Part shown: in pieces, positions 5,981 to 25,672 of the stretch | Numbering within the stretch: the first letter of the stretch is position 1 | How the letters are laid out: the number at the start of each line of letters is the position of its first letter | Virus record (IMG/VR): IMGVR_UViG_2660238507_000002 | Location: 1-29,676 of that record | Direction: 5' to 3' (one strand) | Source: a virus | Taxonomy: Duplodnaviria; Heunggongvirae; Uroviricota; Caudoviricetes | DNA length: 29,676 nucleotides | The notes under the pieces: model-generated | The model's database searches: none | The model's input: only the letters and a program-made list of their open reading frames with translations | What the model was told of the DNA's origin: nothing | Program-made: the position numbers and the translations under genes

Positions 5981-7822
5981 CCAGGACAACGCGCTGCTGG
6001 TTCGTGTTACTACTGCCGTAACGGAAGGTAACGTTTTGATACCCAGCACAGAGAATCCCAGACGGATGACTGCCAGCGGCCCCAGCACTGCAGCCAGCGC
6101 CACCGCTAAGGTGCCGAGGCCTAGGGTAACCGCAGCCACAACAGCCGCTACTTTCATCAGTGTGCCTGTCAGTTCCGGGTTAGCTTCCACCCAGCGGCGC
6201 AACGCCCCCGTGATGCTTTTCACCGTGTACAGAATATCCATCAGCGGCTGGCGCAGCGTTTCGCCCAGGCTGCTGAAGGTATTCTGTGCAGTGGTTTTGA
6301 CCAGCAACCACTGCGCAGAAAGTGAATCCTTGTTAATGTCGGATTCTTTCTGCATGGAGCCGAGCGCATCATTGCCCGCTGTCAGTTTTAGCTGGCGCTG
6401 TAGTTCCGGCAGGTTGTTTGCCAGTTTCGCCGCGTCATCGCCAAACTCTTTACCAAACAACATAGTCATGGCAGACAGACGCTTGTCCTGCGGCAGTGCG
6501 TTCACCTTCTCCAGCACACGCTGGATAGTTCCCATCGCATCCTTCGTCATCTGCTTTTCAATCACTTCAGGATTGAGTTTCAGCAGATTCATCCCTTCAA
6601 AGAAACTCTTGCTCTGCATGGTGGCAATGGACAATTCACGCACCATCGCGTTTGCTGCACTGGCTGCAACCTCCGGCGCAGCGCCCAGTGTCAGAAAGGT
6701 GGAACCCAGCGCCGCCGCTTTACGATAATCCAGACGGTCCGCCACACCGCCCAGACGTTGCATGACATCAATAATGTCTGCCCCTTTCGACATGGCGTTA
6801 TCATCCAGATAGTTCAGCGCATCACCTAGCTGTTCAATATTGCGGGTAGGGATTTTGTAGAGCTGGGCGATTTTCCCCAGACTTTCTGACAGTTCATCCG
6901 CTGGCAGCTCAAAGGCTGTTGCCGCCTTTGCTGCTGTGCTGGCGAAGGCCAGCAGATCACGTTTCTGGTCTTCCCAGCTGTCGTCAGGGTTTGCGACGTT
7001 CATGCGCGCACCACCTTCAACCAGTGCAGCGAAGTCCACAGCACCGTTTTCCATCGGCAACTGTTCGCTGGCAGCCTTGATGGCATCCTGCATTTCATAA
7101 AAACGTGCAGTGCGGTTGCCATTATCGTCACGCAGACCATTGACCTGCTTTGCCACACCTTTCATGGCATCTTCTATGCTGGTATAGCTTTTTACTGCCG
7201 CCATCACTGGCGTCCCCATTGCCAACCCTGCAGCCGTGGTAGTGGCTCCGGCTCCTGCAATACGATCGCGCACCTCCAGCGAACGGGCATAACTGGCACG
7301 CGCCGCATTCATCCTGCGCTGAGCTTCCCCCAGTCGCTTCAGCCGCGCCTCCTGTTTCGACAGTTCCTGGTTATAACGTGATGTTTCACGGGCTAAACGG
7401 GCAGTTGCTCCCGCATCATCTTTCGCAGAAATTCCCGCCCGGTACAGTTCTGCACGCACAAGCGCCGTTTGCTTCTGCAAATATTTTTGTTGTTCTTCCA
7501 GGCGTTGGACTGCCAGCGTTTGCCGACCTAAAGCCACAAGGTGCCGTTGTGATGGTTGTTCCATCGCTTCCAGCTCAGAACTAAGCAAATTTGCCTTCTG
7601 TCTGGCATAGTTCAGCCTGTCGCCTAACTTTTTGTTATCGGCCTGCAGCTTGCGAAATTTTTCCAGGCTGTTACCCGCCTGATTGAGTTGCTTTAATGCG
7701 TCACGGGAGTTTCTGATTGCGCCAGCCAGCTCTTTCGAACTGGCCTGTGCAGCACGGAATGGGCGGGTGAGTTTGTCAACCGCATTAAGAATGACCTGCA
7801 GGCGCAGGTTATTATCACTCAT
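5948..7822 (-). pseudogene. T: tail tape measure protein, N-terminal segment (624 codons, ends at in-frame stop)
   Basis: Long Ala/Leu/Gln/Arg-rich coiled-coil-like ORF starting MSDNNLRLQV, followed by hydrophobic stretch; start overlaps E' stop (ATGAGTGA). Confidence 0.75.
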
Positions 7823-18063: not shown

Positions 18064-18993
18064 TTATTCTGATACTACAGGTTGATATCTCTGGATTTCA
18101 TCAATCAGCTCTGATGAATATTTCGCACAAAGCCTATTAATAAATAATGGCTCAACACTTTTGCAATACGATAAATATCCTTGAAGAAATAGCCTTTTCT
18201 TCTCATCAAGAGCCTCCCATTTAAAAATAAGCGATTTAACCATCCTTTTTTTATCTCTCCCTAAGGATACTCCACCATCTGTTGTCAAAGTCACACCCGT
18301 AACCATCATTTTATTTTTCTTTGACATATGCAGTGTCTTTTTTCTATTAATCCATAGTTTTGATGGGTATTTCAAATTTTTTAAATTCGAGCGTAAAAAA
18401 GGTGGTATTTGCTTCAATACATTTTCTTCGTTTGTTGAGAAGTACATATCATCAGCATAGCGTGTATATGTTATACCTTTTGAAAGACAAAATTCATTCA
18501 ATATATGATCTAATTCATAGCATATAGCATTGCTTACCACAGGGGAACTAACAGCACCCATAGTCAGTCTCCCGTTAAAGCATACTATTTTTACCAGCAA
18601 ATCAGTATCATCCTTTGACCAATCATCACTGAAGAAATGCTTGTTGTCGTTTATAAATCTCTCAACATCACTTTTCTTAATTGAATCAAAAAAACCTTCA
18701 AAGTCCATCTTAAGCATAAAACGTTTAGCTTTGTGAATGCTTGCATGTTTGAACACTGATGAACCCTGCTGATATGCTACAGCATTTGGATGAATCGGCA
18801 ATTTCGACAGAACATTATCATGAAGTAATCTCTGCAAAACTTTTAATTCTTTAGAGGGCTGATAGACGATTCTTGTCCCACCGCCTTTTTTAGGTACAGA
18901 AAATTTACCATAATGCGAGTTAGCATCATTTGCAACTTTTAATATAAAATCAGCTTCTAACAGTAAAACTTTAGCTAGATACTCAATTAACAT
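18064..18993 (-). CDS. retron-type reverse transcriptase
   Basis: 309-aa ORF with RT motifs: N-terminal FSVPKKGGGTRIVYQP, motif A KMDFEGFFDSI, motif B GAVSSPVVSNAICY, motif C YTRYADDMYF, and retron-typical VTGV downstream; AT-rich; ATG 1 nt after upstream gene stop. Confidence 0.85.
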   Translation of the reverse strand: MLIEYLAKVLLLEADFILKVANDANSHYGKFSVPKKGGGTRIVYQPSKELKVLQRLLHDNVLSKLPIHPNAVAYQQGSSVFKHASIHKAKRFMLKMDFEGFFDSIKKSDVERFINDNKHFFSDDWSKDDTDLLVKIVCFNGRLTMGAVSSPVVSNAICYELDHILNEFCLSKGITYTRYADDMYFSTNEENVLKQIPPFLRSNLKNLKYPSKLWINRKKTLHMSKKNKMMVTGVTLTTDGGVSLGRDKKRMVKSLIFKWEALDEKKRLFLQGYLSYCKSVEPLFINRLCAKYSSELIDEIQRYQPVVSE

Positions 18994-18994
18994 A

Positions 18995-20047
18995 TCACAT
19001 GATCCTTTCTAATTCTGCTTTGAATTTAGATATCATTATTAAATCGGATAATGATCTAGCTCTACTTCGTTGAATACTTTCAACTAAATCTTTCATCTTT
19101 TCATGATTAAAAAATTTAATATAATCGACACATGAATAATGGGTCACGCCCTCAAATCGACTTTCCTTAAAAATCCCAAGGGCAACTCCAATAGAAACAA
19201 CAAATGAAATATTTTTATTAATTTTATAATTTATCAACCTACCTGTGATATTAATAATCTCAGGAATTGTTATTGGACCTAAAGAAGATATAACAACGAG
19301 CACAAAAAATAAAAAAATTTTTGGTGAATATTTGTAATCACCTATTGAATTTGTATTAGTTATGTTTGATTGAACTTTCCTATTTAGCCTTTCATTTATT
19401 TTAGGCATACACGTTAAAATTGTCTCAAATTCAGTATAGATTGTAGGGCCAAATTTGGATTCACTATCAACCCATTTTACGGGCCCTGTATTGATAAATG
19501 ACTTATGACTTTCAAACTTTTTATCTAATATAGGAAGAAGTTTTTTACGTAAAACAGGACTTAATGAAAATGCGCCCAATTCAGCTACAGTGCCATAACT
19601 CTCTACGAGAATAATTACCACATCAGAAAAATCCGCAAGCCATTCTTCAAGTGATAGCGCATTCACATTACTATGAGTTCCTAAATTGCTAATTACTTCC
19701 CATGCTAATTCTGCTCGAAAAGTAACAAATTCTTTATGATGCTTAGCAATATATTTTTCCAGCATCCCTCTATTTGAACAATAAGTCTCATCTCCTCCAC
19801 AAATAAATAATACTTTTGGCAGGATATAATTAAAAGAATTCAAGTTACTTGGAAAAAAACTTGAAATAAAATTTTCTTTTGCTCGTAAATATCTAGGATG
19901 TTTAAACCACATAACAATTAATGCCCATACAAGAGTTCCCGAGACACAAGTTAGCCTGGTGTCTATAAATGACACAAGGCTAACTTGTGTCGAGATACCA
20001 AGCAATCCATACGAGTTGGCTAAACACCAACCACTAGAAAGTAACAT
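18995..20047 (-). CDS. retron effector candidate: NDT/SLOG-like domain followed by two predicted transmembrane helices
   Basis: ORF translationally coupled to RT; contains ..VVIILVESYGTVAELGAF.. (resembles nucleoside deoxyribosyltransferase-like Glu motif) and hydrophobic stretches KIFLFFVLVVISSLGPITIPEII and ISFVVSIGVALGIF. Start uncertain: first 46 codons overlap a strong hairpin and look non-protein-like, so true start may be ATG at 19912. Confidence 0.6.
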   Translation of the reverse strand: MLLSSGWCLANSYGLLGISTQVSLVSFIDTRLTCVSGTLVWALIVMWFKHPRYLRAKENFISSFFPSNLNSFNYILPKVLFICGGDETYCSNRGMLEKYIAKHHKEFVTFRAELAWEVISNLGTHSNVNALSLEEWLADFSDVVIILVESYGTVAELGAFSLSPVLRKKLLPILDKKFESHKSFINTGPVKWVDSESKFGPTIYTEFETILTCMPKINERLNRKVQSNITNTNSIGDYKYSPKIFLFFVLVVISSLGPITIPEIINITGRLINYKINKNISFVVSIGVALGIFKESRFEGVTHYSCVDYIKFFNHEKMKDLVESIQRSRARSLSDLIMISKFKAELERIM

Positions 20048-20110
20048 ATTGAATGTACTTTCCTGCTAAGGGCACAGCTAGGCTAGCACTAACATACGGA
20101 TTATTCAAGT
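19915..20110 (-). ncRNA. candidate retron msr-msd non-coding RNA (extent approximate)
   Basis: Position immediately upstream of effector-RT operon; contains very stable hairpin at 19941-19993 as expected for an msd stem; a1/a2 repeats and branching G not identified. Confidence 0.3.
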
Positions 20111-20129
20111 GAATGCAGCTCAGCGCGCG

Positions 20130-20148
20130 CTCGTATCCCCGCCACGCC
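20130..20148. other. candidate cos site (cohesive-end sequence)
   Basis: Minus-strand GGCGTGGCGGGGATACGAG resembles the P2 19-nt cohesive end GGCGAGGCGGGGAAAGCAC as I recall it (about 14/19 identical); GC-rich island between two AT-rich inserts. Confidence 0.3.
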
Positions 20149-20193
20149 TGCCCGCTTTATGTAGTAGTTTTCATGCAGGTGCATGATCTACGC

Positions 20194-20217
20194 AAAAGCC
20201 CGCCAGTTCTGGCGGGC
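20194..20217 (-). terminator. rho-independent terminator ending the upstream two-gene cassette
   Basis: GCCCGCC-agaact-GGCGGGC hairpin followed by TTTT on the minus strand. Confidence 0.7.
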
Positions 20218-20265
20218 CTTAGCAAAAACGATCCTCAAACGATCATGCGATCTCATGCAGCATAG

Positions 20266-21108
20266 TCATGCACGATCATTTGACTCAGCATCTGCTGCAC
20301 GCTTGCTGCGCGAAGATGCACTTTTACTACCAATCTTTCGACAGTTCTTTCTATCCCTGGCTTCATTTTCTTTAAATTTGTTATATGTCTCAGTATCAAA
20401 AAACGAAATTGTTTCAACCTCATCTTTTGGTATGAGCACACGGAAATCTTCGATATTAAGCCGAGACATTCCACTTATCACACCACTATCAAGATAATGT
20501 TGGTGATAGTTAGTCGTGATACTAATCGTTAGATCATCTTTATCCCGATATCCGCTTAACATCGGGAGAAGTTCAAGGTGTTCTGAAAGCCCGTTTTCTA
20601 ACGCCGGACAAGTAACAAGACCAACATAGATTTTGCGAGACGACAGAGTTGCTATGATCGGAAACTGTCTTGCGGACGCTTCCATGAGTAATGATTCGAA
20701 AGCGTTATTACCCACAGCTTTAGCTAAGGCATCCCAGCGACGATCTCCACGTGATGTGCGTAACTTATTTCCAAAACCTGAAATCGCAGCGAGAACAATT
20801 GAAATCATAACCCATGCTATCTGTTTGATTTCATTTATTCTTTGAAGTTTGTCTTTCGATGAAGACAACATGCCATTAAAACTGTCAGGTGTTAGATTCA
20901 AGGCATTAGCCAGCCAACGAAACCCTCCGCTGACGTTCAAAATAAAGGTGAAAAAACCGCCAAGGAGAAAAAAAACGATACCCCAGGCAGCCACAAAAAA
21001 ATAAGCGTCCCAGCCGTTGGAACGCTTATATCGGTATCTTGTTGAAAGTGATAGGTTTACATAAATAAAACCACTAACCAAAATCACTGCTAAAAGTAAT
21101 GTTGCCAT
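20266..21108 (-). CDS. hypothetical membrane protein (3 predicted N-terminal TM helices plus ~160-aa soluble C-terminal domain)
   Basis: 280-aa ORF, AT-rich, start overlaps upstream gene stop (TAATG); no recognisable family. Confidence 0.65.
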   Translation of the reverse strand: MATLLLAVILVSGFIYVNLSLSTRYRYKRSNGWDAYFFVAAWGIVFFLLGGFFTFILNVSGGFRWLANALNLTPDSFNGMLSSSKDKLQRINEIKQIAWVMISIVLAAISGFGNKLRTSRGDRRWDALAKAVGNNAFESLLMEASARQFPIIATLSSRKIYVGLVTCPALENGLSEHLELLPMLSGYRDKDDLTISITTNYHQHYLDSGVISGMSRLNIEDFRVLIPKDEVETISFFDTETYNKFKENEARDRKNCRKIGSKSASSRSKRAADAESNDRA

Positions 21109-21323
21109 TATCTGGTTCTATTAGTTTTCTCTTTTACAGTGCTCGTTTTGATGCCTTCAAGCTTATCCATCTGTGCCTTGATGGCATCCATTGCTCTTTT
21201 GTTAGACAAGTCTACGGACACAAAACCATCTTTACTAAGATTGAGTTTGTCCTGGTTCTCTTTAAGAACCCTTGCCAGACGTTCAACTGGGTTACCCAGG
21301 CTAAATGCGGCGATGCTTGACAT
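21108..21323 (-). CDS. hypothetical small soluble protein, first gene of two-gene cassette
   Basis: 71-aa ORF with strong RBS AAGGGGGAG 5 nt upstream of ATG; translationally coupled to the 280-aa gene. Confidence 0.6.
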   Translation of the reverse strand: MSSIAAFSLGNPVERLARVLKENQDKLNLSKDGFVSVDLSNKRAMDAIKAQMDKLEGIKTSTVKEKTNRTR

Positions 21324-21593
21324 AACTCCCCCTTTTCACATGGCGCGGAAGTCTACACTCCGACGCCTACAACCTCAACAGATTATCTTTAAAATTTAGA
21401 CAACAATATCATCTGTTGATTTCGTTACTTAAACTTAAGTTCAATGCGCTCGATCATGCAAGCGGTTTCTTAAGAACTGTTAATTTCCTGGCATATATAG
21501 TGGTTAAGATAACAAATTGACACTAACGCCTCGCATAGCTCGTTGTTCAACCTTGCTGACGCCAGAAGCAAGTTCAGACGCCAGCAACGTTTC

Positions 21594-22179: not shown

Positions 22180-24594
22180 TTAATACAGGTTCCGCCACTT
22201 ATCATCTTCCTGCAAACGCTGGTTCCGATAGAAGATACGCAGGCCTGCTCCTGACGGAATGCTGCCGCCGCGAAGGAGTAAATCGACCTCTTTCTCGCTG
22301 CCATCAAATCCTCTGGACTTCAGTTCATAGACGAGCTGCTGTCGTTGATGGTCTGTAATTCGCTGTTTGTAGTCTCTACGCCGTTTCGGTTTCACCAGGC
22401 GTAACCTTGCAGCCAGTTCCCGGCGCTCTTTTTTGTTCATACTGTGCAGGTAATCGTGCAACTCCTTGTCATCCATACGGGTGATATCCGTTCTGGTATC
22501 CCCATCAGCTGATTTGTCTTTCCCTTGTTGGTACAAATTTTCAGCAAGGGGACAGTTATTGCCACGAGTCCAAGGGGCGCAAGCGCCCTGGTCGGCTGCC
22601 GCCTCCTGAACGTCAACGGCTTTACGGACCATTTTCCACTTCACTGCATGAGTGCAGATCTTGCCCTCTGCAATGGGTGACCAGATGCCATAAATACGAA
22701 TACCGTGATCGCCATAGGCGGTCGGCTCTTCGTTGATTTCATAAGCGGTTCTGATGAGGTGATATTTACGGGGAACCAGTACGCCGCCCTGCTTCATGAT
22801 GTAGGTGGCAAAGCAACCAGCATCAGCTGCAGCCAGAATGGCATCAAGGCGCGGGTTATCCAGTACCGGCGCACCTGCTTTTTTGTCACCCTGTTGCCTT
22901 GCCGCCTGACCAGCCAGCAATCGCAGTTCACGGTAAGCCTGACGCCCCGGAATGCCAAAGAAGCGGAATTGCTGAACACGATGCAGAGACGCCCAGGCAT
23001 TAACGTATTCAGCGTTATCACGCAGAGATTTACCCGTTTCCTTGCTGATCTCGCCAGCCAGACCACGCCCGTCAATGTTCTTACTGATGTATTTCGCGAT
23101 GTAGCTTGTTGGTGTACCTTTGCGCGGGTTTATCAGCTCAGACTTAAAGCGTGGTCCTGTGTTATTACCCAGCTCCTCGCGGTCTTCACGAATGGCAAAC
23201 TTACGCAACAAAGCAGTAATGGCGCGGCGATCTTTTTTGCGCATAAAACACAACAGGTGCCAGTGAACTGTACCGTCATGATGCGGCTCAGCCACCCGCA
23301 CGCCATACCAGCGCAATCCGGCTTTGTACATCGCCTTACGAAATGCAGCAAACATGCCGACCAGATAATCACTGCTTTGTCTTACCGTCGCATTTGTCCA
23401 GTTCGGGTTGGGCCTGCCGTTATTTAGCGTGGAATGGAAACGTGACGGACAGGTGATGGTGTAGAAAACGGCGCAGTCACCGCGCATTTCCGCGATAAGC
23501 TCCAGACCTTTAACACATGCCATCATCTCATTGCGGCGATGCGCCGGGTTGCTACTACTGGCGTTTACCACGTCCTCCATATCCAGCGTGTCGCCGTCTT
23601 CGTTCACCAGTTCATGAGAACGGAAAAACTCCAGCGACTTACGGCGCTGCTCACGTTTATGCATCACGGCTTCATAGCTGACATAGGGAGATGCTTTTTT
23701 GCTGACCAGGCAAACAGCACGCAACTGCTCTTCCCGCCATTCGAAACGCATCTTCCATAATTTCCGATACCACCAGTCGGCGCACAACATACGCGCCAGC
23801 GAACCCGGAATGAGTTCATAGGGTACGGGTTTACGGCGGTTTCTTTTCCGGCGGAGTTGCTCAAACGCAGGAGGGATGACATCCAGACGCAGGGTTTCCG
23901 CCGCCACCCTTTCCCATGTCTTGCGGATTTCTTCTGGCTTAACGTCATCGGTGGCATACAAATCACCACAAGCTGCATCAAGGCACATGCTCATATGCGC
24001 GGCAACAAGGGTAGACAGGCGCTTCACCTGATCCTGACTCATTTCAGGCAAGATCAGCAGGCCGTCCAGCCCTTCATGGCTTGCCATAAAACGAAAAGAT
24101 GCAGATAGCTGGCTGTCGCGTACATGCTCTAGTCGTTCCAGACATGGTTTAATCGTCTCACGCAAATAGCGGGAATAAGCCTTTGGCCTGCCCAGGCTGC
24201 TGAAGTATTCAATACGTTGCATCAGCGGCTTGCTGATATGGGAAGGCTGGGCGTTAACGTCCGCCAGTATGACCATGTCCGGATTAAAACGCTGCTGCTC
24301 ATGCACCAGCTTTGCCCGGCTAATGAGCTTATCCTGCTCCATTTCGCGCTGGACAGGATCACGGGATTCATTAAAGAAATAACGCTCCCAGACCTGATCA
24401 CTCAGTGCCTCGCGGCGCAGTTGTTCCTGCTTGTTATCGGCAGCGTACAGAGTGATCAGGTTTGAAAGCGCAGAAACCGGCGCAACTTCCGCCGGGTCCA
24501 GATAAGGGTTAATCGCCTTTTTCGGGCTGTTCCATGAGAATGCTGCGGCGGCCTCGTTAAAGCCGCTGCAGTTGTTCATATCAGCATGTCTCAT
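22180..24594 (-). CDS. A: replication initiation protein A (rolling-circle endonuclease)
   Basis: 804-aa ORF at the position of P2/186 gene A; start overlaps dam stop. Confidence 0.8.
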
Positions 24595-25448
24595 GCACGT
24601 ACTCCGTACACGGCAGAACTATCCACGCCACGCGAAGGATCAAATCCCACCCAGCAGCGCGCCCCAGAAACAGCGATGATTTCTGTTGCAGATTTACTCT
24701 CACCAGCTGCTACGCCGATGCTGCGTTTTGCCTTGATGTAGTGGTGAGTAAAATTGCGATACAGCGAACGGATCAGGGATGTGTCACTGTTAGAAACAAT
24801 GACCGGATGTCCTTCTGATGACCGATGTTCAAGAACGGATGCCAGGTGATACTGGTCATCTTCAGTGAAACCATCAGTGTGATAGCTGGAAAACGTACCG
24901 TCATACGGCGGATCGCAATACACCACATCCCCCGCCTTCAACATCGCCAGCGTTTCATCAAAGCTGGCGCAGATAAACGTTGCTCGTTGGGCTTTCTCTG
25001 CAAATGCGCGAATTTCTTTTTCAGGGAAATACGGATTTTTATAATTACCGTAGGGAATGTTGAAATGCCCGCTCTTGTTATAGCGACATAACCCACGGTA
25101 ACCGTGACGATTGAGATACAGGAAATATACCGCTTTCATGAAATCAGTAATTTCAGTTGAGTAATTAAACTCCTGCCTTATGTTGTAATAAGCCACCTCC
25201 CTGTTTGCTTCCTTAAATAAAACTCTGGCGCGAGATATAAACGATTCACAATCAGCGGCAACCTTTTTATAGAGGTTGATTAAATCAGGATTAATATCCG
25301 CAACCAGATAGCTGGGATAATCCGTCTCCATCATCACAGCACAGGAACCCGCGAAAGGTTCAACCAGTCGCGGGCCAGCTGGAAGATGTTTTTTCAGTTC
25401 GGACATTACGGCGGTTTTATTTCCCGCCCATTTCAGGATGGTGCTCAT
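24591..25448 (-). CDS. dam: DNA adenine methyltransferase (Dam-like, GATC)
   Basis: Motif [11 protein letters not shown] and motif IV DPPY; start taken at ATG 25448 ([11 protein letters not shown]), overlapping TraR-like stop. Confidence 0.85.
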
Positions 25449-25672
25449 ACAGCACCTCCGTTGTAATGTTTGCCTTTCAGCTCTGCGATTTCCTGACAGG
25501 TAATGCAAAGCTGCACACCTGGAATGGCGCGGCGGCGTGCTGGCGGAATTGGCGCTTCACACTCAATGCAAAGCACGCGGGACACGCCCGGCGTTTTGGC
25601 ACGGGCAGCACGGATATGGCGCTGGCGTTCTTCTTCAACGCGCTGCTGTACGAGATCCATTGCATCAGCCAT
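25445..25672 (-). CDS. TraR/DksA-family C4 zinc-finger protein
   Basis: 75-aa ORF with CxxC...CxxC (CIECEAPIPPARRRAIPGVQLCITCQ). Confidence 0.8.
   Translation of the reverse strand: MADAMDLVQQRVEEERQRHIRAARAKTPGVSRVLCIECEAPIPPARRRAIPGVQLCITCQEIAELKGKHYNGGAV

Follow-up and report, generated by a model that had tools for sequence, protein, structure and literature searches.

We found that the long hairpin lying in the 5' part of a RefSeq effector gene is very probably the msd stem of a type II-A1 retron ncRNA (St85 / Retron-Sen2 family) and, in the same reading, that the 350-aa ORF drawn across it by RefSeq is over-extended. The window (the whole stretch of DNA that was analysed, 29,676 nucleotides) is a segment of an E. 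coli chromosome with a P2-like prophage, and in the region examined it matches strain MS14386 at 100% identity. Within this prophage the retron occupies a position between cosL and the portal gene, and all of its parts lie on the minus strand in the order putative promoter, ncRNA, effector and reverse transcriptase (RT) (Table 1).

Table 1. Positions of the retron features and of the neighbouring cos site in the window.
Feature	Position	Strand	Basis or remark
Retron RT, 309 aa, YADD motif	18064..18993	-	NCBIfam, PADLOC, Pfam RVT_1
Effector CDS (RcaT/STM3845-like, NDT-like), corrected start, 305 aa	18995..19912	-	Family profiles, conserved N-terminus
Effector ATG	19912	-	8 nt past a1
Probably spurious 45-codon extension	19913..20047	-	Crosses msr loop 1, msr stem-loop 2 and msd hairpin
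Retron ncRNA gene (msr-msd), 157 nt	19920..20076	-	Covariance model R1; unannotated in public records
a1 inverted repeat UAUGGGCAU, msd 3' end	19921..19929	-	UAAGGG in relatives
Predicted msDNA (cDNA)	19931..20008	+	Analogy with characterised retrons; 5' end next to a1
msd hairpin	19943..19991	-	15 bp + mismatch + 5 bp; fold statistics, covariation
msr stem-loop 2 (GGUUGGU-GUUUA-GCCAACU)	20014..20032	-	Consensus helix 3, nearly invariant across loci
msr stem-loop 1 (GGAAAGUA / UACUUUCU)	20036..20063	-	Consensus helix 2; loop contains RefSeq ATG 20047-20045
Predicted branching (priming) guanosine, AGC context	20066	-	Directly 3' of a2; invariant in alignment (column 11)
a2 inverted repeat GUGCCCUUA, msr 5' end	20067..20075	-	Pairs with a1
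Putative promoter	20080..20108	-	-35 TTGAAT (20108-20103), TG (20088-20087), -10 TAGCCT (20085-20080)
cos site GGCGTGGCGGGGATACGAG, then GCGCGCTGA	20130..20148	-	Likeness to P2 cosL; upstream limit of the retron cassette

The two proteins place the element in a known family. The RT, which RefSeq names "retron St85 family RNA-directed DNA polymerase", matched the NCBIfam model retron_St85_RT with 326.2 bits (cut-off 235) and the PADLOC profile RT_II-A at 4.4e-105, with RT_I-A as the second-best profile. The effector, annotated in RefSeq as a 350-aa ORF at 20047..18995 (WP_181654987.1, "retron St85 family effector protein"), matched the NCBIfam equivalog STM3845_fam with 178.1 bits (cut-off 100) and PADLOC NDT_II-A at 1.2e-53. 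Its database homologues carry PF28093, and the solved Ec86 effector (7v9x_C) aligned to residues 34-148 of the 305-aa form at 1.5e-17. Mestre et al. defined type II-A1 by an NDT-like effector, an RT clade shared with type I-A and the order ncRNA-effector-RT, and the features of the window retron agree with this definition, the structure of the ncRNA family being judged here with our own nine-locus model from other genera.

The initial annotation had described a long, nearly perfect hairpin at 19941-19993 that overlaps the annotated 5' end of the effector, and the structural examination revealed an inverted repeat at this place, inside the 5' part of the RefSeq ORF. Its arms at 19943-19963 (GACACAAGTTAGCCTGGTGTC) and 19971-19991 (GACACAAGGCTAACTTGTGTC) are 21 nt each and 95% complementary, and they are separated by a 7-nt gap that reads TATAAAT on the plus strand and forms the loop AUUUAUA in the minus-strand RNA. 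The loop was thus as described, whereas the stem, given there as 14 bp extended by 5-6 pairs, consists of an outer run of 15 perfect base pairs, one mismatch and 5 bp that close the loop. The single mismatch is U·C in the minus-strand RNA and G·A in the cDNA. As a separate observation, it sits in a CCTGG/CAAGG hemi-Dcm site. RNA folding had been proposed as a check, and when the 86-nt context of the hairpin was folded as minus-strand RNA, the free energy was -38.7 kcal/mol compared with -18.7 +/- 2.8 kcal/mol for shuffled sequences (z = -7.3), with none of 200 shuffles folding as well. In a scan of the whole 29.7-kb window, this was the longest hairpin-type inverted repeat, and the next-longest ones had 15-nt arms with 87-93% complementarity.

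The hairpin is one part of a complete msr-msd gene, in which a2, the predicted branching guanosine, msr stem-loops 1 and 2, the msd hairpin and a1 follow one another. The a1 and a2 repeats pair at 8 of 9 positions, including one G·U wobble, and the remaining position is a U·U mismatch (20069/19927). The CCCUUA/UAAGGG core of a2/a1 is kept in all loci with a delineated ncRNA, while the outer pairs covary; msr stem-loop 2 is the most conserved motif of the ncRNA. By the established priming mechanism of retrons, G20066 is predicted to be the branching guanosine. Upstream of a2 lies a putative promoter, from which transcription would start at about 20073-20076, that is, at the beginning of a2. Its CTTGA, TG and TAnnnT elements are retained in two relatives (L026 and L027), and it falls below the threshold of our consensus promoter scan, which found no strong sigma-70 consensus promoter. 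When the region was compared with Rfam, no family matched at the gathering thresholds, and only chance-level matches to miRNA and rliD families appeared at E values up to 10; membership of the RNA therefore rests on the covariance model built in this analysis. Folding of a 296-nt region with ViennaRNA proposed another a1/a2 pair, 20165-20157 with 19914-19906 (9 bp with a wobble), which was rejected. This pairing reaches across the cos site, is without counterpart in the relatives and lies outside the covariance-model match, and a pairing of its size is common, since 10 pairs of at least 8 nt were found in the surrounding 450-nt stretch.

In order to examine the conservation of the ncRNA, 20 related loci, which come from Yersinia, Pantoea, Pectobacterium, Vibrio, Shewanella, Colwellia and other genera, were compared over their upstream regions, with the a1/a2 assignment anchored on the motif. 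Except for two loci in which no msr motif was recognised (L017 and L018), all of them share the same order of elements: CCYUUAG, a variable stem-loop, a near-invariant GGUUGGUGUAUAGCCGACC stem-loop, a linker (AUUGYUUGGU...), a long hairpin and GUAAGGG, the last of which falls shortly upstream of the effector ATG. The long hairpin of the relatives is fixed in position and free in sequence and length. The RNAalifold consensus of 11 sequences contained the a2/a1 stem, the two msr stem-loops and the msd stem, with compensatory changes in 18 of its 35 pairs; these included 10 of the 13 pairs of the msd helix and 6 of the 8 pairs of msr helix 2 (stem-loop 1). On the named structure 90.9% of the cells were paired, compared with 33-51% when the 3' partners were slid, and none of 500 shuffles reached the observed value on any of five measures.

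We then built a covariance model (R1) on nine loci from Yersinia, Pantoea, Pectobacterium, Amphritea, Spirochaetia, Geomesophilobacter and Vibrio, leaving the window and its close relatives out of the training set. In the window, R1 gave a single, full-length match at 19920-20076(-) with 101.2 bits (E = 2e-22), and it also detected the RNA in Vibrio, Shewanella and Colwellia loci. In L026, the nearest diverged relative, a U-A pair of the hairpin is replaced by G-C through a double change, and the outer a1/a2 pair covaries. Like the window retron, L026 belongs to a P2-like prophage, where it lies between the replication and portal genes. The position of the hairpin within a complete msr-msd gene, the covariance-model match and the covariation of the stem all bear out the earlier proposal that it is the msd stem of a retron.

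The ncRNA has also changed more slowly than the genes that it accompanies. The Klebsiella phage 4LV2017 (L029) and an IMG/VR contig (L031) have no substitution in the 157 nt of the ncRNA, with 33 and 23 substitutions, respectively, in 1848 coding positions. L027 differs from the window at 12 of 157 ncRNA positions and at 304 of 1848 coding positions, and L026 at 22 of 157 and, for the effector gene only, at 238 of 918. The substitution rate of the ncRNA is thus about half that of its protein genes. This slower change fits neither an unconstrained spurious N-terminus nor a dead element.

Regarding the start of the effector, it had been suggested that translation begins near 19912, and comparison of the homologues led to the same place. 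An N-terminus MW(F/S/I)xHP(K/R)Y is common to 25 homologues from many genera in a 26-sequence alignment and corresponds to ATG 19912, and the few homologues annotated as longer proteins have unrelated extensions. Among the 120 matches listed, the effector relatives are typically 305-316 aa long, and the coverage of 87% (305 of 350 residues) corresponds to residues 46-350; the PADLOC and NCBIfam profiles match the 350-aa ORF only from residues 57 and 76 onwards and skip the extension. In 12 of 21 loci, at most 21 codons separate the conserved ATG from an in-frame stop upstream of it, and in the 80%-identical L026 this stop lies 15 codons away, inside the hairpin. The codons over the hairpin region do encode a C/W-rich peptide, as had been pointed out (MLLSSGWCLANSYGLLGISTQVSLVSFIDTRLTCVSGTLVWALIV). 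The conserved motif of msr stem-loop 2, GGUUGGUGU, translates to 'GWC' in this N-terminus, and CGWC recurs in over-extended ORFs of other genera, so the C/W-rich peptide is a result of translating the conserved msr loop. No recognisable Shine-Dalgarno (SD) sequence was found 5-12 nt from ATG 19912, and additional initiation at ATG 20047 is for this reason formally possible. Based on these comparisons, the 350-aa ORF is very probably an over-extension, with its ATG 20047 falling within the loop of msr stem-loop 1.

It has to be considered whether RefSeq might nevertheless be right, with translation from ATG 20047 and a hairpin that arises incidentally or at the codon level within a genuine N-terminal segment such as a membrane or signal segment. 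The ORF is open from 20047 and is annotated in this form both in E. coli and in Klebsiella phage 4LV2017, the 92%-identical L027 has an open frame of 349 aa, and a good SD is missing ahead of ATG 19912. Nevertheless, we consider this explanation highly improbable, because the extension is absent from most relatives and unalignable where present, the frame is closed in the majority of loci including L026, the family profiles leave the extension uncovered, the recurring 'GWC' is accounted for by the conserved RNA motif, and the substitutions preserve base pairs and not codons. Equally improbable is a hairpin that serves mainly as a cis-regulatory element of the effector, i.e., as a terminator, attenuator or translational roadblock, instead of a template for reverse transcription. 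The hairpin lies 30 nt upstream of the effector start, and internal msd deletions in Retron-Sen2 reduce RcaT levels, so that the msd influences effector expression there. However, the identity of the hairpin as an intrinsic terminator was rejected because the stem is not followed by a U-tract (the next bases are UCGGGAACUCUUG), and a terminator scan of 19700-20400 found none. The embedding of the hairpin in a complete msr-msd gene with a1/a2 and the branch G also speaks against this explanation, as does the pattern in the relatives, in which the free sequence and length of the stem and its kept position are those of an msd. A regulatory side-effect of the hairpin is compatible with the msd explanation but does not replace it.

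The retron could also be a decaying relic, in which the A-to-U change in a1 breaks the a1/a2 pairing, no msDNA is made and the hairpin is without current function. The U·U mismatch falls within a stem of only 9 bp and occurs in one lineage only among the loci examined, and the same base change removes the SD-like AAGGG. On the other hand, both ORFs are intact and the RT retains its YADD motif. In 8 of 9 E. coli records, in the Klebsiella phage and in the IMG/VR contig the ncRNA is unchanged, against a difference of 1-2% in the flanking genes. L027 retains the mismatch despite 16% gene divergence, which argues that it is tolerated, and a toxin that is not neutralised would be counter-selected. 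We thus regard decay as unlikely, and the hairpin is best described as the msd stem of a retron that is uncharacterised but a typical member of type II-A1, ordinary for its family.

Among the closest described systems is Retron-Sen2 (St85) of Salmonella Typhimurium, a type II-A1 retron that has the same order of msr-msd, effector (RcaT/STM3845 family) and RT, and like it the window retron is expected to act as a tripartite toxin/antitoxin. Its ncRNA likewise has two msr stem-loops and one long msd hairpin with a mismatch, whereas the sequence of the msd stem appears to differ from that in the window. The window hairpin contains no GATC, and the Dam trigger described for Sen2 therefore cannot apply to it. 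The predicted 5' end of the msDNA is AAGA here and the cleavage motif is TAGA in Sen2, and Sen2 is reportedly inserted directly in the chromosome, whereas the window element is carried by a P2-like prophage beside cos. Retron-Eco9 of E. coli NILS-16 also belongs to the St85 family and has an RcaT-type toxin with an RT-msDNA antitoxin that defends against T7. Identity of the window retron with Eco9 was rejected, as Ser155, Ser181, Ser254 and Ser292 of RcaT are not all Ser here; in the 305-aa numbering these positions hold G, Q, E and I, and in the 350-aa numbering they hold A, H, S and I. Retron-Vmi1 (Vm85) and other Vibrio St85-like retrons share the operon layout, the a1/a2 repeats, the two msr stem-loops and the msd stem with a mismatch. 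Their effectors are about 44-47% identical to the window effector, their msd is longer, and Vmi1 is inserted in dusA on an island and not in a P2-like phage.

More distant retrons with solved structures were also compared. Retron-Eco1 (Ec86), a type II-A3 system for which RT-msDNA-effector structures have been solved, has an NDT-like effector as in the window, and its solved RT matched the window RT at 4e-32. Nonetheless, the RT clade and the class of ncRNA differ between the two, and the proteins are only distantly related. The Ec86 ncRNA presumably shares the CCCUUAG / GUAAGGG core of a2/a1 with the window retron. The solved RTs closest to the window RT are those of the type I-A retrons Ec78 and Ec83 (1e-43 to 1e-50), whose effector module is an ATPase with an HNH protein instead of an NDT-like protein. 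A common ncRNA structure for types I-A and II-A1 was described by Mestre et al.

The predicted msDNA, whose 3' end is approximate (about 70-80 nt in total), opens with 5'-AAGAGTTCCCGAGACACAAG on the plus strand of the window from 19931. When the predicted cDNA was folded as DNA, the free energy was -21.5 kcal/mol (z = -8.8). GATC is absent from it, and CCTGG occurs once, at 19955. The lack of GATC in the msd is notable because a DNA adenine methylase gene is present in this prophage. In Retron-Sen2 and Retron-Eco9 the RcaT effector is toxic, and the RT together with mature msDNA forms the antitoxin. The toxin is triggered by phage or prophage functions that methylate the msDNA stem (Dam at GATC), degrade the msDNA (RecE) or sequester it, and Eco9 protects against T7. 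By analogy with Sen2, Eco9 and Ec86, a1 and a2 of the window retron would pair in the transcript, so that the 2'-OH of G20066 is offered to the RT. Starting at about 19931, the RT would then move leftwards along the RNA, copy the msd with its hairpin and halt in the linker between msr and msd. The product would be an msDNA of about 70-80 nt with a core formed by a 15+5-bp DNA hairpin with one G·A mismatch. RT and msDNA would bind and neutralise the toxic NDT-like effector, and once phage factors modify the msDNA hairpin, degrade it or sequester it, the toxin would be freed and the infection aborted.

The retron cassette begins 54 nt downstream of the cos cohesive-end sequence. For comparison, cosL of P2, annotated at 1-19 of NC_001895, reads GGCGAGGCGGGGAAAGCAC, then TGCGCGCTGA. 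When complete E. coli genomes were searched, the element proved rare, occurring in 8 of 5426. Its ncRNA is 100% identical in 8 of the 9 E. coli records, with a single substitution in the remaining one, and a search of E. coli genomes and plasmids for diverged ncRNA copies returned the same element only. Klebsiella phage 4LV2017 also has it, as do related Klebsiella phage records, and a scan of IMG/VR for phage-borne relatives gave one locus only, with an identical ncRNA. P2-like phages have already been known to bear retrons in variable loci. Neither the full texts searched nor the retron census paper's supplements contained the msd sequence, and the Klebsiella prophage paper that cites phage 4 LV-2017 does not mention a retron.

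The a1 repeat reads UAUGGG in the window and UAAGGG in the relatives, which gives the internal U·U mismatch with a2, and among the loci examined this mismatch is confined to the lineage of the window, L029, L031 and L027. Priming could be reduced or lost through this mismatch, which is absent from most relatives. In 10 of 21 loci, a1 is the best anti-SD site and lies 6-10 nt from the effector ATG; most loci with a more distant a1 have a separate SD, with L010 as an exception. In the window lineage, the SD-like AAGGG is lost through the very A-to-U change that creates the mismatch. The arrangement of these sequences suggests that RNA folding and toxin translation may be coupled. A more specific and tentative idea, to which we give a rather low likelihood, is that in the enterobacterial branch a1 (UAAGGG / UAAGGA) is the only SD-like element of the toxin gene and that the a1/a2 duplex, required for the priming of msDNA synthesis, hides the ribosome-binding site as well.

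Since the element fits the established type II-A1 pattern, it adds little to the biology of the family. What it offers for further work is a newly defined ncRNA, with a predicted branch G, an msd and a putative promoter, which can serve cloning for defence assays or retron editing. It also corrects an error that has been propagated in RefSeq, where WP_181654987.1 and YP_009789833.1 each carry 45 N-terminal residues that are, as judged above, spurious, and gene callers make the same over-extension of the effector in other genera. If the a1/a2 duplex does hide the ribosome-binding site, translation of the toxin would be coupled to the folding state of the transcript, or to processing of the same transcript by RT and RNase H, and the A-to-U change to UAUGGG, which weakens both the a1/a2 duplex and the SD, may turn down the phage-borne toxin.

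When we compared the retron with related loci, the ncRNA (19920-20076) showed a per-site substitution rate about half that of the adjoining effector and RT genes, measured against Klebsiella phage 4LV2017 (L029), an IMG/VR contig (L031), L027 and the 80%-identical relative L026. The ncRNA sequence is identical between the Klebsiella phage and E. coli prophages. The effector ORF in the RefSeq record of 4LV2017 (L029 1447-2499, YP_009789833.1) is likewise over-extended through msr-msd, and the same error was found in gene calls from other genera (P0005, P0014, P0067, P0072 and P0026). The spurious N-termini of these over-extended effectors have only 'CGWC' in common, which is the translated msr stem-loop 2.

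The sole mismatch of the msd stem falls within a CCTGG (Dcm) site at 19955-19959, and the opposite arm reads CAAGG, making this a hemi-site. Relatives in Yersinia, Pantoea and Pectobacterium carry GATC on one arm of the msd stem, with the other arm similarly disrupted. GATC is absent from the whole ncRNA of the window, even though a gene for a DNA adenine methylase is present in the prophage and Retron-Sen2 is triggered by Dam methylation of its msDNA.

In 10 of the 21 loci (L002-L009, L012 and L026), the best anti-Shine-Dalgarno site is the a1 repeat itself (UAAGGG/UAAGGA), with the effector ATG located 6-10 nt downstream, and most loci whose a1 is more distant from this ATG contain a separate Shine-Dalgarno sequence. 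In the lineage of the window and L027, a single A-to-U change in a1 (UAUGGG) abolishes the Shine-Dalgarno-like motif and also generates the U·U mismatch between a1 and a2. The same change creates a new AUG at 19926-19928, which opens an 8-codon mini-ORF (MGINCYVV*) that overlaps the effector start codon out of frame; this mini-ORF may be a coincidence.

Features of the window outside the retron
Feature	Position	Strand	Remarks
RybB sRNA gene	2700-2778	plus	Rfam RF00110, 105 bits
cosL-like site	20130-20148	minus	GGCGTGGCGGGGATACGAG then GCGCGCTGA; close match to annotated P2 cosL
280-aa gene	20266-21108	minus	phrog_3630; half of two-gene cassette
71-aa gene	21108-21323	minus	phrog_9843; half of two-gene cassette
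DNA adenine methylase	24591-25508		encoded by prophage

Given the RybB gene, we assign the left part of the window to the host chromosome. The two-gene cassette lies in the P2 variable region, across cos from the retron, and is closed by a terminator-like hairpin at 20192-20223. Neither of its genes was matched by Pfam or PADLOC. Of 5426 E. coli genomes, about 1270 contain the 3' end of the 280-aa gene; the cassette is possibly uncharacterised hotspot cargo. Two more inverted repeats with 15-nt arms were observed at 6282-6320 (93% complementary) and 21375-21419 (87%).

Since the cosL-like site closely resembles the annotated P2 cosL (GGCGAGGCGGGGAAAGCAC then TGCGCGCTGA), the retron cassette occupies the interval between cosL and the portal gene (Q), which in P2 spans about 167 nt and contains no genes. 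Measured from the left end of the packaged DNA, msr would begin at about 54 nt. In the relative L027/L028 (a Logan SRR27876785 contig and Enterobacter cloacae GCA_027267055.1), whose effector is 92% identical to that of the window, a GIY-YIG gene comes next and no P2 portal gene lies alongside. Based on this different context, we conclude that the retron cassette moves between genomic contexts.
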